From positions 502,882 through 554,705 of the forward strand of contig JAKLEX010000001.1 in the NCBI GenBank assembly GCA_022711495.1: a stretch of DNA of 51,824 nucleotides, in the 5' to 3' direction. Below, piece after piece: positions 8,277 through 46,232 of this stretch; position 1 is the stretch's first letter; the number at the start of each line of letters is the position of its first letter. The notes below the pieces were generated by a model. The model was not told the DNA's origin, did no database searches, and worked only from the letters and a program-made list of their open reading frames with translations. Source of the DNA: Patescibacteria group bacterium (GTDB lineage Bacteria > Patescibacteriota > Minisyncoccia > Phycocordibacterales > JAACPR01). A program made the position numbers and the translations under genes.

Positions 8277-10799
8277 CTATTTGATCTTCCAGCCGGTCGC
8301 CAGATATTCTTCGGCCTTTTTAAACTTCACCTGAATTTCTTTGCCATCTTTTATCAAAGTCACCTTGTCGTTTCTGCCGAATCTTGAATCAGCGCCGGCT
8401 GATACCTGTTTGCCTAGTGATTCAGCCCGAGCTCCGCTGGTAATTTGAGCGGCTTTAACATTTTCGCGTAATTTTTGCTCGGCTTTTAAGAAGGCGCCGG
8501 CGCCGAGGTTGGGTAAAATATTTATAATCTGTTCATAGATGGCCTCTCTCATGGATTTGAATAACCTAAGCGCCTCTTTTCTATATTCAACTAAAGGATC
8601 GCGTTGACCGTAAGCTCGAAGATTAACGCTTGATCTGGTGTAATCCATCGTCTCCAGATGATCCACCCAGAGCGTATCAATACTCTGCAAAACGACGCGC
8701 CTCAAAGTTTTGTACCACTCGTCTTCGCCGAGAGTTTGTTTTTTTTCTTCAATAATTTTTTCTATTTGCTCTCCGCCCCGCGCGATAATTTCCAAAATCT
8801 CCGCTTCCAACGTCTCACGATTGCCTAGCAAAACTTTACGGCGGCGCTCATAGACCGAAGCTCTTTGCGTGTTCAAAACGCTATCAAATTCAAGCAAATG
8901 TTTTCGGGCATCAAAATGAAAGCCCTCAATTTTTGTTTGCGCGTTTTCCAGAGCGCGAGAAATCATGCGATTCTGGATCGGTTCTTCTTCGGGCAAACCG
9001 AGCTTGCTCATGAGGGTCTTCATGGTCGGCGGAGCAAATATTCTCATTAGAGAGTCATCCAAAGAGACGAAAAATTGTGTCTCGCCCGGGTCGCCCTGTC
9101 GTCCGGACCGCCCTCTTAACTGGTTATCAATTCGGCGAGCTTCGTGGCGCTCAGTACCAACAACAAATAATCCTCCCAAACTTTTAATTTCTTCATATTT
9201 TTGTGAATCAAAAGGTTCACCACCTAACTTAATGTCAACTCCGCGACCAGCCATGTTGGTAGCGATTGTCACTGTGCCCTTTTTACCGGCCTGAGAAATT
9301 ATCTCGGCCTCTTTTTCATGATTCTTGGCGTTCAATATGTTGTGCGGAATGCCATTTTGAGTCAGATATTCGGAGACCAGTTCATTTTTCTCAATTGAAA
9401 CCGTACCGACAAGCACCGGCTGACCTTTTTCATGCAGTTCTTTTATCTTTTTAATTAGCGCCTTAAATTTCCCAGTTTCCGTCTGATAGATTAAATCATT
9501 GTAATCGGTGCGGGCATTGGGCCGGTTAGTTGGAACAACGGCCGTTTCCAACCTATAGACTTTAAAGAACTCCTCGGCGCTGGTTTTGGCCGTACCGGTC
9601 ATGCCGGACAGCTTTTTATACATTTTGAAATAGTTCTGATAAGTAATAGAAGCGAAAGTTCTGGATTCCTGACCGACTTCAATTCCCTCTTTGGCTTCTA
9701 TGGCCTGGTGCAAACCCTCCGACCAGCGACGACTCGGTTGCATTCGTCCGGTAAATTCGTCAACGATGACAATTTTTCCGTCACGGACGACATAATCTTT
9801 GTCTCTTCTAAAGAGGGCTTCGGCGCGAACGGCCGTCTCCAAATGATGAACATATTTAATACCTTTCTCACTATAAATATTCTGGACACCCAACATTTTC
9901 TCGGATTTGGAGATGCCGGAGTCGGTCAAGCCTATTGATCGCGTTTTTTCGTCAACGGTGTAATCTTCATCTTTTTTAAGTTGGCGAGAGATTTTGGCAA
10001 AAACCCCATAAAGATTTTCCGCATCAGCCGATGGCGCAGAAATAATTAACGGAGTTCGCGCCTCGTCAATCAAAATAGAGTCAATTTCATCCACGATGGC
10101 AAAATTATGTTCCCTCTGTCGGAGATTTTCCGGATCGTACTCAATATTGTCTCGAAGATAATCAAAACCAAATTCGCTGTTCGTACCATAAGTGATGTCC
10201 GCGGCGTAAGCTTCTTTTCGCGAAATTGGACGAAGATAGTCATAGATAATATGAAAAAACCCGAAAGCGTCTCTTTCTTCGTCTTGTTTTTCACTGGTGT
10301 GACTTGGATCGTAGACATAAGAGGCCTGCTGGTTAATAACTGCCACGCTGAGACCCAAAAAGTTATAAATTTGTCCCATCCAGACGGTGTCACGACGAGC
10401 CAAGAAATCGTTTACCGTGATGACGTGAACGCCCTTACCAGTTAGAGCATTTAAATAGACCGGCAAAGTGGCTACTAGGGTTTTTCCTTCACCGGTGCGC
10501 ATCTCGGCGATATTGCCGTCGTGAATAACCATTCCTCCTAGGAGCTGAACGTCATAGTGCCTCTGTTTCAAAGTCCGGACAGCGGCTTCGCGAACAACGG
10601 CAAAAGCTTCTGGCAAAATATCGTCCAGAGTTTTACCCTTAGCAAGCTCGGCTCTAAAGAACTGAGTTTTGGCTTTTAACTGCTCATCGCTTAAAGCTGA
10701 AATCTGTTCAGAAAAAGAATTAATCGCCGGAATTTTTGATTCGTATTTTTTCAACAAACGGCGGCCGCCGTCCCCAAAAATTTTTGACAGAAATGACAT
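8277..10799 (-). CDS. secA: Preprotein translocase ATPase SecA
   Basis: MRTGEGKT Walker A, IVDEIDSILIDEARTPLIIS, TNMAGRGVDI, QLRGRSGRQGDPG. ATG 10799 is preferred as start. Confidence 0.98.
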   Translation of the reverse strand: MSFLSKIFGDGGRRLLKKYESKIPAINSFSEQISALSDEQLKAKTQFFRAELAKGKTLDDILPEAFAVVREAAVRTLKQRHYDVQLLGGMVIHDGNIAEMRTGEGKTLVATLPVYLNALTGKGVHVITVNDFLARRDTVWMGQIYNFLGLSVAVINQQASYVYDPSHTSEKQDEERDAFGFFHIIYDYLRPISRKEAYAADITYGTNSEFGFDYLRDNIEYDPENLRQREHNFAIVDEIDSILIDEARTPLIISAPSADAENLYGVFAKISRQLKKDEDYTVDEKTRSIGLTDSGISKSEKMLGVQNIYSEKGIKYVHHLETAVRAEALFRRDKDYVVRDGKIVIVDEFTGRMQPSRRWSEGLHQAIEAKEGIEVGQESRTFASITYQNYFKMYKKLSGMTGTAKTSAEEFFKVYRLETAVVPTNRPNARTDYNDLIYQTETGKFKALIKKIKELHEKGQPVLVGTVSIEKNELVSEYLTQNGIPHNILNAKNHEKEAEIISQAGKKGTVTIATNMAGRGVDIKLGGEPFDSQKYEEIKSLGGLFVVGTERHEARRIDNQLRGRSGRQGDPGETQFFVSLDDSLMRIFAPPTMKTLMSKLGLPEEEPIQNRMISRALENAQTKIEGFHFDARKHLLEFDSVLNTQRASVYERRRKVLLGNRETLEAEILEIIARGGEQIEKIIEEKKQTLGEDEWYKTLRRVVLQSIDTLWVDHLETMDYTRSSVNLRAYGQRDPLVEYRKEALRLFKSMREAIYEQIINILPNLGAGAFLKAEQKLRENVKAAQITSGARAESLGKQVSAGADSRFGRNDKVTLIKDGKEIQVKFKKAEEYLATGWKIK

Positions 10800-10821
10800 G
10801 GATATCCTCCGATAATAGCAC

Positions 10822-10851
10822 AAAAAGCAAAGCCCTCAACTTAGTGAGGGC
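10822..10851 (-). terminator. Intrinsic terminator of the protamine-like gene
   Basis: GCCCTCA-N6-TGAGGGC (10832-10851) followed on the minus strand by TTTGCTTTTT. Confidence 0.65.
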
Positions 10852-10871
10852 CCGGCTCCAAGCATCTGCGC

Positions 10872-10985
10872 TTATCTTCTTCGGCTAGACTTTCTCCTTG
10901 AAGATCTCTTGGCTGATTTCTTTGCCTTTTTTGCAGATCTTTTAGCTGACTTTCTTTTTGCAGCTTTTCTTTTCTTTGCAACCAT
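10872..10985 (-). CDS. 37-aa ultra-basic protamine/histone-H1-like peptide (below ORF-track cutoff)
   Basis: MVAKKRKAAKRKSAKRSAKKAKKSAKRSSRRKSSRRR*; 12 K + 9 R, no acidic residue; A-rich region before ATG; terminator downstream. Confidence 0.8.
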   Translation of the reverse strand: MVAKKRKAAKRKSAKRSAKKAKKSAKRSSRRKSSRRR

Positions 10986-11082
10986 TTTTATTTTGTTAAC
11001 TGATAAAAGTTTTCTTCCCTACTTAATTATCGCAGCATTCGAGCAGACCGAAAGACTTTTTTGAAAAAATATGTGGATAAGT

Positions 11083-11116
11083 TAAATTTTCTCAAAAATA
11101 TTTTTGAGAAAATTTA
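11083..11116. repeat. 34-bp perfect AT-rich palindrome
   Basis: TAAATTTTCTCAAAAAT|ATTTTTGAGAAAATTTA; TGTGGATAA (DnaA-box consensus) lies at 11072-11080. Confidence 0.85.
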
Positions 11117-11124
11117 TTTTAAAA

Positions 11125-11243
11125 AATAAAAATCGCCGCGATTCGCGGCGACTCCTTGCGTCCTGGATTGGCCGGTGAGCGCTAGCTCCAACGAATATCT
11201 TACGTGAGTGCGATACACCGACCAGTCCAAAACACAATCTCAT
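11125..11243 (-). ncRNA. Predicted structured sRNA-1 (22-bp stem, 38-nt loop, terminator hairpin)
   Basis: Arms 11237-11216 and 11177-11156 give 21/22 pairs including 4 G-U on the minus strand (these are mismatches on plus). TGC-TATACT extended -10 at 11256-11248. Terminator UCGCCGCG-AAU-CGCGGCGA followed by a U-tract. Confidence 0.65.
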
Positions 11244-11373
11244 AAAAAGTATAGCAAAATTGTAACAAGGTTACAGCCAGACTTGTGAACATTCTGTTGG
11301 AGATATTTTAAAAAAAATTTATTTGATGATACCCCCGTTCCGGTTAGCCAGAGACATCCGACCGCCAATCACC

Positions 11374-11448
11374 AAAAATGCAAATCCCCGCCGAAGCGGG
11401 GACTTACACAGATATTCGTTCGTGGAGCTATTCGCTCACACTCACGCC
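11374..11448 (-). ncRNA. Predicted sRNA-2, complementary to the loop of sRNA-1
   Basis: Promoter TTGCGC(11481-11476)-N17-TATACT(11458-11453); ends in a GUCCCCGC-UUCG-GCGGGGAU hairpin followed by U-rich sequence. Confidence 0.6.
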
Positions 11449-11541
11449 AGTTAGTATAGCAGACGTTTATAAAAAGCGCAAGTGGATAACAATTTGGGGA
11501 ATTTCCAAGGAACAATCGCCGCAAATCTGGAAAAGTTGAAC

Positions 11542-42250: not shown

Positions 42251-42614
42251 ACACTGAATTTTATACAATCGGGAAATTGTATTTCCACGAAACAAATCTT
42301 AGAAAAGTCTGATTTCTAGATTTCCTAATGAGATCGATTAATTAGTACGCCTTGGCTGAACACATTACTGTGCTTACACCTAGCGCCTATCAACGTAGTA
42401 ATCTCCTACGGATCTCAAACGATTCCTAATCTTGGGGCTAGCTTCATGCTTAGATGCTTTCAGCATTTATCTAAACCCGACATAGCTACAGAGCAATGCT
42501 CTTGGCAGAACAGCTCTCACACCAGAGGTCGGTTCACCTCGGTCCTCTCGTACTAGAGGCAACCCCCCGCAAGAATCAACGCCTACAGCAGATAGAGAAC
42601 CAACCTGTCTCACG

Positions 42615-43046
42615 CATGCCAATCACCTGTTGCCAGATGCATCGGACTAGATCTTCGCTTTTCACAAAAAATTGCCAACTTCGTGAAAGGCAGCCGGTTA
42701 TTAGTCTCTACGGGTCTGTGATGATTTCAAATGAATATCACTCCCCTCGGAATTGTCTTCGGTTCATTTCGTAAATCTATAAATTATAGATAGCGAAACT
42801 TGCTAAAGATTTTCCCGATATTAACCGACTTTTTCTTTCTTTGTTTGTTTGAGCGCTTGCGCGCGTCACAAAGAAGACCGCCGTGAATATTGATTTTCTA
42901 CACATGTTTACTCAACATGTTTTAGACAAAAAGACCTAAACATAATAACACTTCTTCTACATTCGAATTCGATGTTCGTATTGGTTTGATAACTCGCCTC
43001 TAGGATTCAGATTGGTTCATGAGCCGAAAAAATTTTCCGCTCATGA
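42615..43046 (-). other. Group I intron at 23S position 2593 (432 nt, no homing endonuclease ORF)
   Basis: Exon ...CAGACCGU | intron ...GCAUG | CGUGAGAC. P AAUAUCGGGAA, Q AAUUCCGAGG, R GUAGAGACUA, S AAGAUCUAGUCC; P3 GUCGGUUA/UAACCGGC; IGS UUCACG-GCGGUCU gives the U.G splice pair and P10; GCAA-capped P9. Confidence 0.92.
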
Positions 43047-43709
43047 ACGGTCTGAACCCAGCTCACGTAACTTTTTAATTGGCGAACAGCCAAACCCTTG
43101 GGACCTTCTCCAGCCCCAGGATAAGTTGAGCCGACATCGAGGTGCCGAACACTACCGTCGATATGAACTCTTAGGTAGTACCAGCCTGTTATCCCCAGGG
43201 TAACTTTTATCCGTTAATCTCTGGCCGCGTCTAAAGCGTACCATCGGTTCACTATGTTCTGCTTTCGCACCTGCTCGTCATGCACGACTTGCAGTCAAGC
43301 CAGCTTGTGCCATTACACTATCGGCACGATTTCCATCCGCGCCTAGCTGACCTTAATAAACTCCTCCGTTACTCTTTAGGAGGATAGCGCCCCACCAAAA
43401 CTACCCACCAGACACTGTTCCGCGCCGTTTTTGCCGGCGAGGTTAGATTGTACATTTTTACAGAACGGTATTTCACTGACGACTCCACTTTTCCCAAAAG
43501 AAAAGCTTCAAAGTCTCCCGTCTATGCTACGCAGTAAAAACGTACAGCCAATGCCAAGTTGTAGTAAAGCTCCTGGGGTCTTTCTGTCTTGCTGCAGGAA
43601 GGCGGCATCTTCACCGCCATTGTATTTTCACCGAGCAAGTCCTCGAGACAGTTCCCCAGTCGTTACACCATTCGTGCGCGTCTGAACTTACCAGACAAGG
43701 AATTTCGCT

Positions 43710-43954
<245 letters not shown>

Positions 43955-44787
43955 CGGGGCTTATATCAGTCAGCACCAAACATTTTAGAAACGAATTTCT
44001 TCGCGCCCAAAATGTTTGGCACCGCCGATATTTGACCTTCCGGCATTGGTCAGGTGTCGCCCTCTATACATCATCTTACGACTTCGCAGAGAGCTGTGTT
44101 TTTGGTAAACAGTCGCCAGGGATTCTTTAGCTGCGGCCCCATAACTTAATACAGGGCAGGCCTTATCGCTAACTTACGGCCGCTTTTTTGCCGAGTTCCT
44201 TGAGGACCTCTCACTCGTTCGCCTTAGTCTTCTCGACCAAACTACCTGTGTCGGTTTACGGTACGGATTGTTTTAAATTAAGCTTAGAAGTTTTTCTGGG
44301 AAGCCTTTTTTATTCTGTCTCTCTTGGCGAACCGCAAGATTCTGATATCGAATCGGCCTGATGTCTTCCGGATTTTCCTAGAAGACAGCCTCTCGACTTC
44401 AACCCAAATCCAATAATGGGCAGAACATAATAGACTCCGTCACTCCATCGCATCTAAAACAAGTACTGGAATATTAACCAGTTATCCATCGGGTTCGGCT
44501 TTCGCCATCCCCTTAGGACCGACTAACCCTTCGCTGATTGTCATTGCAAAGGAACCCTTAGTTTTTCGGCGTGCGGGGTTTTCACCCGCATTGTGGTTAC
44601 TCGTGCCAACATTCTTACTTCATAACGCTCCACCATGGGTCACCCCTTTGGCTTCAACGCGGATATGAATACTCTCCTACCGCTCGCACTTTTCCGAAGA
44701 AAAATACAAGCCCTCAGCTTCGGTACTATACTTAGCCCCGATTATCTGCGGCGCGGAATCTCTTGACGAGTGAGCTGTTACGCTATC

Positions 44788-44819
<32 letters not shown>

Positions 44820-45393
44820 TCGTTGTATAAGAAATTCCACCTCCTTAAGTGCACTTAGTATAAATTTTGGGACCTTAGCTTGAGATCTGGACTGTTTTCC
44901 TTTTGACCGACGAACCTTAGCGCCCGTAGTCTTACTGCCAAGCTCTAACTTTGGGTATTCGGAGTTTGGTAGGCGAGATGAGATTTCTCCCTATTCTAAC
45001 CTTCCAGTGCTCTACCCCCCAAAGGAACACTTGACGCTATACCAAAATATATTTCGGAGAGAACCAGCTATTTCCAAGTTCGATTAGCTTTTCACTACGA
45101 CCCACAAGTCATCCGAGCGAGTTGAACAACACACCGGTTCGGGCCTCCTCTGATATTTCTATCAGATTCACCCTGCTCATGGGTAGATCACTTGGTTTCG
45201 GGTCTGATACGTTATACATTTGTTCGCGCTATTAACACTCGGTTTCCCTAAAGCTCCGTCCCATAGGACTTAGCTTGCAAAACGCATCAACTCGTTGGCT
45301 CATTCTTCAATAGGCACACCGTCGAGGTATTGCTACCTCTTCGATTCCTTGTAGACATATGGATTCAGGTCTATTTCACCGCCCTAATCGGGC

Positions 45394-45435
<42 letters not shown>

Positions 45436-46232
45436 TAAAAGAATATTTAGCCTTGCCGGTTAGTTCCGGCAGCTTCACCCGAGCTATTCGTGTCTCGAGA
45501 TACTCAAGAGCTGAAACAAAAGAGAGAATTTGCTTTCATCTACAGGACTATTACCTTTTGTAGTATTTCTTTCCAGAAATTTCGATTAACAAACTCCTTT
45601 GTAACTCTTCTCGTGCAAGCACGACGTTTCAGTCTTACAACCCTCATCCCCCACCATCTAATAAAAGATAGCTTTTTGGGATAAGTTTGGGCTTCTTCCT
45701 TTTCGCTCGCCGCTACTAAGGAAATATTTCTCTACTAATGCAGAGATTGTTTTCTTTTCCTCTAGGTACTGAGATGTTTCACTTCCCTAGGTTTGCTCCT
45801 TCTGGTCAAGCCAGAAGGTGCCGCACAAAATGCGGCGGGTTTCCCCATTCGGACATCTTCGGATAAAAAGTTGCTATACACTTCCCCGAAGCTTATCGCA
45901 GCTATGCTACGTCCTTCATCGCTTCTTTTAGCCAAGGCATCCACCATACGCCCTTAGATTCCCATTAGGAAATCTAAAAACCACTTAACTTTTCTACTGT
46001 TTGTTTGTGAAAATACAATTTCCTGATTGTATTTACAATTATTCAATTTTCAAATAACAGTCGTCCCGATTTTTCTCATTCCGTACCCAGCATCCCAAAC
46101 TAGTCGCCTAATTCGGGACTCTCGATAAAGAAAGACCGCTTCGTCTGAAGCGGCCAGTTCTCGCGTACGCGTTAAAATCACGTTCAGACTGGCCGTTTCA
46201 AACTTAGATTTTCCCTCATATTTGTAGGAACG

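Follow-up and report, generated by a model that had tools for sequence, protein, structure and literature searches.

A small gene for a lysine- and arginine-rich peptide was identified directly upstream of secA in the genome of a Patescibacteria group bacterium (assembly GCA_022711495.1). The stretch of DNA analysed, called the window here, covers 51,824 nucleotides (nt) of contig JAKLEX010000001.1 (positions 502,882 to 554,705), and the gene lies on its minus strand at positions 10872-10985. The genome is also present in the data sets JGI 3300025902 and SRR5007150. Comparison with relatives indicated that the gene is real and probably transcribed separately, that it is the local member of an uncatalogued family of polycations, and that its promoter, its terminator and a binding box for the replication initiator DnaA are conserved. 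The best overall explanation, which we hold with moderate confidence, is that this real Lys/Arg peptide gene specifies a DNA-compacting polycation whose synthesis is tied to DnaA; the function proposed here is a prediction from sequence and comparative analysis.

The open reading frame (ORF) starts with ATG, ends with TAA and lies 72 nt from the secA start codon (ATG at 10799, same strand). Direct translation gave MVAKKRKAAKRKSAKRSAKKAKKSAKRSSRRKSSRRR, exactly the peptide quoted in the initial annotation, with 21 basic residues among 37 and no acidic ones. The peptide is composed of 12 K (32%), 9 R (24%), 7 A (19%), 7 S (19%), 1 V and 1 M, and its C-terminal part contains RRKSSRRR. Aromatic and strongly hydrophobic residues are absent, Met1 and Val2 being the only hydrophobic ones; because of this and of the net charge of +21, no hydrophobic core is possible. 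When all 565 kb of the genome were scanned in six frames, no second frame made of K, R, A and S only was found.

Analysis of 40 orthologues showed a family composition of K 48%, A 20%, T 8%, V 8%, R 7%, P 4% and S 3%. Ten kinds of residue were found in all, namely these seven, the initiator Met and, in trace amounts, I and G. Acidic, aromatic, Cys and Leu residues did not occur in any of the 40; the filter used to collect the orthologues tolerated at most one D/E and left the other residue classes unrestricted, so the complete absence of D/E is partly built in. The K+R fraction was about 0.5-0.57 at every length and the net charge ranged from +11 to +57, while the length varied from 17 to 113 amino acids (aa) through gain and loss of repeats, with charge density alone being retained. 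The window member is atypical in having 24% R and 19% S, compared with family medians of 5% and 2%. This Arg/Ser shift is confined to the genus, and the family overall is Lys/Ala-rich. No signal peptide, transmembrane segment or hydrophobic face was found in the peptide family.

The initial annotation had named a lack of expression and of frame-preserving conservation in relatives as grounds for abandoning the proposed gene; as to the latter, conservation proved to be extensive. A protein search in relatives gave 37-aa orthologues from two congeners, with 60-75% identity and in each case directly upstream of secA. The secA gene was then used as an anchor, and the region upstream of it was taken from each relative. 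Within the family of the host, an acid-free, K-rich ORF (K-ORF) of 17-103 aa was present on the same strand upstream of secA in 29/29 loci from 12 genera; 28 of the 29 were picked by the automatic filter, and the remaining one (L025, 103 aa) was confirmed afterwards. At the order level one genome was sampled from each of 16 other families, a secA match was obtained in 15, and the K-ORF was found in 11 of these 15, adjacent to secA in 8 and at a distance of 343-685 nt in 3. Among named GTDB genomes, 10 of 80 secA loci had such an ORF, of up to 113 aa, and all ten were labelled as Candidate Phyla Radiation (CPR): seven of Paceibacteria type (Minisyncoccia, Paceibacterota, Nomura-, Vogel- and Wolfebacteria), two Saccharibacteria and one Patescibacteria single amplified genome. 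About 50 non-CPR loci served as a negative control, and none had a K-ORF upstream of secA. Every orthologue started with ATG, followed by Pro, Ala or Val as the second residue and then by a K-rich stretch. The comparison thus indicated that Paceibacteria/Minisyncoccia retain a polycation gene upstream of secA.

The pattern of substitution was that of a reading frame. Among close orthologues, substitutions at codon positions 1, 2 and 3 stood at 90:89:238, and one pair showed 8 synonymous and 0 non-synonymous differences; the orthologue pairs in these codon tests are phylogenetically non-independent. Frame 0 was always open, compared with 10/40 loci for frame +1 and 8/40 for frame +2. AAG accounted for 50% of the Lys codons in the ORFs and for 32% in the neighbouring secA (Fisher p = 8e-19; per-genome Wilcoxon p = 3e-8). 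None of the 40 ORFs contained more than 8 consecutive A, and the mean longest run was 6.4, where 8.65 would be expected if codons were used as in secA (p = 6e-10). Such a codon choice would result if slippery poly(A) were selected against (PMC4363877), and the codon pattern therefore suggests that faithful expression of the Lys frame matters. These results indicate that both the reading frame and the codon choice are under selection, and the ORF is predicted to be translated.

The same evidence bears on two other readings of the region, as a non-coding purine-rich RNA or as an exported cationic peptide with antimicrobial or host-directed action. The former would suit a discrete transcription unit, which the region is. 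The latter would suit the epibiotic life of CPR bacteria, and protamine and polylysine can damage membranes. A non-coding RNA is opposed by the invariant ATG, the conserved N-terminal codons, the frame 0 that is always open and the synonymous-only changes between close species; export is opposed by the lack of a signal peptide or hydrophobic face and by the lack of a dedicated transporter gene adjacent to the ORF. Taken together, these two readings were considered highly improbable.

The ORF had been thought to escape annotation because it is too short for standard gene callers. This explanation did not hold, as the one gene call examined, that of JGI for a contig with identical SecA, annotated a 51-aa ORF on the opposite strand and omitted the Lys frame. 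The possibility that this hydrophobic antisense ORF is the real gene, and the Lys frame its mirror image, was therefore weighed. Apart from its selection by a gene caller, it is favoured by the finding that the antisense frame sharing the wobble positions was open in 36/40 loci, so that third-position excess and homopolymer avoidance alone cannot distinguish the strands. That frame reads poly-Phe, the mirror of poly-Lys. The antisense ORF was rejected as a gene on several grounds: its start is not conserved and most orthologues have no Met in the frame; it crosses the terminator and the leader of the sense gene; and Phe would make up about 45% of its product, which would have 5-7 Asp in members of this genus and lack Asp in other genera. 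Moreover, the promoter, the DnaA box, the ATG with its conserved second codon (Pro/Ala/Val), the stop codon and the T-run of the terminator are all oriented for the Lys frame. The probability that the antisense ORF is the gene was taken to be negligible.

An exact look-up of four family sequences among 15 billion proteins returned none, phmmer with the 41-aa sequence of a congener gave no match, and a nine-member profile searched against 1.84 billion representatives gave no match. Absence of the family from protein catalogues is likely, and composition-bias correction probably hides it from profile search; the antisense shadow ORF together with low-complexity correction may account for its being missing. 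No description of this gene was found in the literature.

The gene was proposed to form its own transcription unit, and the elements named for it, a TGCGATAAT extended -10, an A-rich leader and a terminator, were all present (Table 1). Alignment of 37 upstream regions showed a common layout consisting of an A-run with AG, TTATCCACA, a T-run, an A-run, a weak -35, 17 nt and TGnGATAAT. The -35 is TTGTnn in most loci and TCTTTC in the window. Judged by the known UP consensus, the tract TATTTTTTCAAAAAAGTC probably resembles an UP element. Among 35 loci the leader of the window member is the shortest, with 40 nt separating the -10 and the ATG, and it does not have the (G)GUCGA motif found in the leaders of 24/35 loci. 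The 3' end of the 16S rRNA is GGATTATATAAAAATAC, not GGATCACCTCCTTA, and the CCUCC anti-Shine-Dalgarno (anti-SD) sequence is missing, as is the case in about half of Parcubacteria (PMC9297842); because of this, the absence of a Shine-Dalgarno sequence before the ATG is no evidence against translation. The 3' end of the 16S rRNA reads GGATTATATAAAA (31758-31815, minus strand); yet secA itself has GGAGG 6 nt before its ATG (10806-10810).

The stop codon is followed after 19 nt by the terminator stem, and a terminator was located at the same place in nearly every displayed orthologous locus. Transcription of the peptide gene is thus predicted to begin at a dedicated promoter and to stop at the terminator after about 200 nt, and to restart for secA from the promoter of that gene. 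Between positions 10780 and 11600, Rfam searches at permissive E-values detected no known RNA family and ARAGORN detected no tRNA or tmRNA.

The position of the ORF raised the question of a SecM-like leader peptide, whose translation would control terminator read-through or secA initiation. Like E. coli SecM, the ORF is small and immediately precedes secA, and it does so on the same strand in the whole family; polybasic nascent chains and runs of Lys codons slow ribosomes (PMC4363877, PMC9207662), and the stop codon is merely 19 nt from the terminator stem. On the other side, a strong terminator and then the extended -10 of secA separate the two genes in nearly all genomes, the ORF and secA are 343-685 nt apart in three families, and several genomes of the class have the promoter and the K-ORF but no secA within 1.6 kb, so that the linkage to secA is not universal. 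The peptide has no signal sequence and no transmembrane segment with which secretion could be sensed, unlike SecM, and its codons avoid slippery A-runs rather than exploit them. A role as secA leader was regarded as extremely improbable.

Judged from sequence, the strongest clue at the locus is the conserved DnaA box in the promoter, which the initial annotation had overlooked. The perfect box TTATCCACA was found in 31/37 orthologous loci and the relaxed form TTWTNCACA in 34/37, and its spacing to the -10 was always 39-42 nt. In the 220 kb that make up the remainder of the same loci, used as a control, only 1 perfect box occurred. A consensus DnaA box (TTATNCACA) at a conserved promoter position is what is looked for in DnaA-regulated genes, and it was found here. 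The whole genome contains 13 perfect DnaA boxes, and the pattern of box plus -10 occurs in it just once. With 13 copies only, TTATCCACA was rejected as a general promoter element. The DnaA protein of this genome retains the GGRDHTTV recognition motif, and the densest cluster of boxes adjoins dnaA. These findings agree better with a regulatory box at the peptide gene than with an origin.

The pattern of box plus -10 was detected in 65/301 genomes of the class, compared with 2 control matches. Among 30 loci retrieved by this pattern alone, 12 had a K-ORF downstream, mostly those with the 40-nt spacer, and several units of pattern plus K-ORF in the class had no secA within 1.6 kb. Outside the class, 377 genomes of the phylum gave 16 pattern matches, none of them with a K-ORF. 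Because the pattern search recovered the K-ORF only inside the class, and in some cases without secA nearby, the unit appears to be a trait of the class that is independent of secA.

DnaA is an established transcription factor that can act as activator or repressor (PMC8203912). The conserved box suggests that DnaA sets the synthesis of the peptide: bound beside the UP-like T/A tract, it would make the supply of peptide follow the replication status of the cell. The direction of the putative effect could be either, as the position of an activator is plausible and competition with the alpha subunit of RNA polymerase equally possible.

The locus was also considered as the origin of replication (oriC) and rejected, because dnaA and the minimum of the cumulative GC skew are at 64-95 kb, the terminus is at about 380 kb and the gene is at 513.8 kb. 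Three clustered DnaA boxes beside dnaA (C1:63271-63392) mark the probable oriC, and the single HU gene (C1:94945-95214) lies about 30 kb from this cluster, within the zone of the GC-skew minimum. In the window, a second DnaA-type box, TTATCCACT, lies at 11481-11489 (minus strand) and adjoins the -35 of the first of two small RNA (sRNA)-like units; the corresponding box in a congener (G001) is a perfect TTATCCACA. With this second box, two neighbouring intergenic promoters bear DnaA boxes. A perfect 32-nt AT-only palindrome, AAATTTTCTCAAAAATATTTTTGAGAAAATTT, at 11084-11115 closely precedes the DnaA box in the promoter of the peptide gene and is not palindromic in congeners.

As to the action of the peptide, it would be a disordered polycation that serves as a counter-ion without sequence specificity. 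It would bind nucleic acid, chromosomal DNA being the most probable target, and compact it as do the C-terminal tails of histone H1, Hc2 or protamine. This target is favoured because the sole specific regulatory signal at the locus is a site for the replication initiator and because the nearest compositional analogues condense DNA. The binding target is a prediction, as is the choice between activation and repression by DnaA, and the nucleoid-condensing or RNA-chaperone role suggested in the initial annotation is likewise putative.

The family has the composition that characterises the H1 C-terminal domain (Lys at about 40%, much Ala, spacers of S/T/P and a lack of acidic residues). Like that domain, including the trypanosomatid H1 that consists of the tail only, it would be disordered, with about 40-50% Lys and Ala, Thr/Ser, Pro and Val spacers and no acidic residues; in both, the length varies through repeats of the AKKA/PKKA type, and the expected action is charge neutralisation and DNA compaction. 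The winged-helix globular domain of linker histone H1 is not in the peptide, which gave no Pfam linker_histone match and is too short for such a domain. It differs from H1 further in being free-standing, bacterial and 17-113 aa long, with the window member shifted towards Arg/Ser.

The scans of Pfam, NCBIfam and PHROGs with the peptide and its longer orthologues found nothing above cut-off, and the window peptide had no Pfam or NCBIfam match at E <= 10. The only database resemblances came from longer orthologues and were sub-threshold: 17.9 bits against a cut-off of 40 for Hc2 (PF07382), 14.4 against 80 for NF038053, and a best orthologue score of 13 against 135 for NF038052. Chlamydial Hc2/HctB and Hc1 (PF07382, NF038052) and the H1-like proteins of Burkholderia/Bordetella (NF038053) are also bacterial Lys/Ala-rich repeat polycations, and they condense the nucleoid. 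The present peptides are 3-10 times shorter than these proteins, their scores remain below the membership cut-offs, and their genomic context and DnaA-box promoter are different. The family therefore belongs to neither Hc2 nor NF038053, but it shares the construction of both and of the H1 C-terminal domain, as a free-standing polycation of the H1-tail type.

Lys/Ala/Pro-rich tails also occur on folded proteins such as mycobacterial HupB/Hlp (PMC5676037) and HBHA (PMC10665949), Pseudomonas AlgP (PMC9239181) and Streptomyces DdbA (PMC3643593). The repeat chemistry of these tails is common to the peptide family, and binding of DNA or polyphosphate is documented for them. There the tail is fused to a folded domain, whereas here it has its own gene, and the separately encoded HU carries no tail of this kind.

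Protamines and the small-cell-variant peptide ScvA of Coxiella are very short, extremely basic proteins without a fold that condense DNA, and protamines contain more than 50% Arg. The RRKSSRRR end of the window peptide looks similar to protamine; its Arg content, however, is 24% (family median 5%) and it has no Cys, so that Arg does not dominate. Of the resemblances in composition first proposed, those to H1 tails and Hc2 were borne out, and "protamine-like" is a loose description of the window member and a poor one of the family.

Binding to the ribosome was the other possibility considered for a peptide of this kind. It would be a ribosomal or rRNA polycation: a tiny ribosomal protein specific to the lineage and comparable to bS22, bL37, bTHX or eL41, or else a counter-ion more loosely associated with the reduced CPR ribosome. 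In length and charge density it resembles such tiny basic proteins, which are often missed by annotation, and its leader appears suited to efficient initiation. The ribosomes of Parcubacteria are remodelled, with uL1 and the anti-SD lost and an Ala/Lys-rich uS19 tail gained (PMC9297842), and the uS19 of this genome (C1:124841, plus strand) ends in an Ala/Lys/Glu-rich extension, ...ELEQAKREAEISAAKAAKPVEAKAPDAKK, that matches this Parcubacteria-specific tail (PMC9297842). Stoichiometric ribosomal proteins, including bS22, bL37, bTHX and eL41, keep their length and sequence, whereas the length of the peptide family varies more than six-fold (17-113 aa) by repeats and composition alone is kept. 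No match to bS22, bL37 or bTHX was found in NCBIfam/Pfam, a PDB sequence search gave no matching chain, CPR ribosome chains included, and L34 and L36 are present elsewhere in the genome as normal genes. The DnaA box also argues against this possibility, as it is not a known feature of ribosomal-protein promoters. A ribosomal role was considered unlikely, although well above the other alternatives weighed so far.

Several observations weigh against the proposal of a DNA-compacting polycation tied to DnaA. No copy was found near secA in 4/15 of the other families of the order, and the promoter-pattern search of 3 of these 4 gene-less genomes gave no relocated copy, chance pattern matches only. 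No homology to a characterised DNA-binding protein reached a curated cut-off, and the lack of acidic residues is in part a product of the composition filter. A pure polycation would bind rRNA, tRNA, polyphosphate and acidic lipids as readily as DNA, and a lone DnaA box could be a titration site, not a regulatory one (PMC12371093). The genome already encodes HU and does not require the peptide as its sole nucleoid protein, so that the peptide would be an addition to the nucleoid proteins.

A more specific form of the proposal, put forward as tentative and improbable, is a "tail-only linker histone" that would be wired to DnaA at about -57 beside the UP-like tract and would scale with DNA synthesis, and that would also stand in for polyamines where spermidine is not made. 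In bacteria it would correspond to the expression of histones in S phase. Spermidine synthase was absent from the genome, which is compatible with a role as polyamine substitute. Control of the Ser-rich variant through phosphorylation by a Hanks kinase was considered and found unlikely, as no PF00069 match was detected in the genome.

Table 1. Positions in the window of the peptide gene, its regulatory elements and adjoining features.
Feature	Position	Strand	Description	Basis
Peptide ORF	10872..10985	-	37 codons plus TAA, encoding MVAKKRKAAKRKSAKRSAKKAKKSAKRSSRRKSSRRR; net charge +21	Direct translation and orthologues
DnaA box	11072..11080	-	Perfect box TTATCCACA, 40 nt ahead of the -10 hexamer, at about -61 to -53 relative to the predicted start site	Sequence; conserved
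T-run/A-run tract	11054..11071	-	TATTTTTTCAAAAAAGTC, between the DnaA box and the -35 position	Box-anchored consensus aTTT.TTT.aaAAAa..TT, 37 loci
Extended -10	11026..11034	-	TGCGATAAT	Sequence; TGn and GATAAT kept across family and order
Predicted 5' untranslated region	10986..11020	-	About 35 nt, A-rich, no Shine-Dalgarno sequence, essentially unstructured	Minimum free energy -0.9 kcal/mol; 195/200 shuffles fold at least equally well
Intrinsic terminator	10822..10853	-	GGGCCCTCAC...GTGAGGGCTT hairpin (10830-10853) plus T-run	G+C-rich; -23.4 kcal/mol, z = -3.0
secA extended -10	10812..10820	-	TGCTATTAT, 12 nt before the secA ATG	TGn-TAnnAT equivalent between terminator and secA in most relatives
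secA	8277..10799	-	840 aa from ATG at 10799; outside the peptide transcript	ORF; Pfam SecA domains
Antisense shadow ORF	10909..11064	+	51 aa, MADFFAFFADLL...; judged not to be a gene	Annotated by JGI gene call; L182 1236-1391

The two sRNA-like units lie directly upstream of the peptide gene, as the initial annotation had described, at 11374-11460 and 11128-11260 (minus strand). A TGCTATACT extended -10 and a strong terminator belong to each unit; congeners have kept both units, and neither gave an Rfam match. Over about 35 nt (AGATATTCGTT..GGAGCTA..CGCTCAC) the two units are almost perfectly complementary to each other. Their cores are more conserved than the flanks between congeners, and the second copy is inverted in one congener (G004). 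A link of the peptide to this pair had been suggested; the longest Watson-Crick run between the sRNAs and the peptide mRNA was 7 nt, no better than in shuffles, and the suggestion was dropped. Elsewhere in the window, the 23S rRNA gene (42321-45970) is 3650 nt long, compared with the 2925 positions of the model, and thus contains insertions; it lies about 9 kb from the 16S rRNA gene (31758-33253).

The analysis also carries a practical warning, as small poly-Lys genes are masked by poly-Phe antisense shadow ORFs, which can out-compete them in gene calling, and by low-complexity filters. If confirmed, the gene would belong to the core gene set of a very large uncultured bacterial group while being missing from the protein catalogues, and a minimal free-standing polycation would join the known bacterial chromatin proteins. 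It would also link the replication initiator to the supply of a DNA counter-ion in genomes of about 0.5 Mb that have neither spermidine synthase nor an anti-SD.

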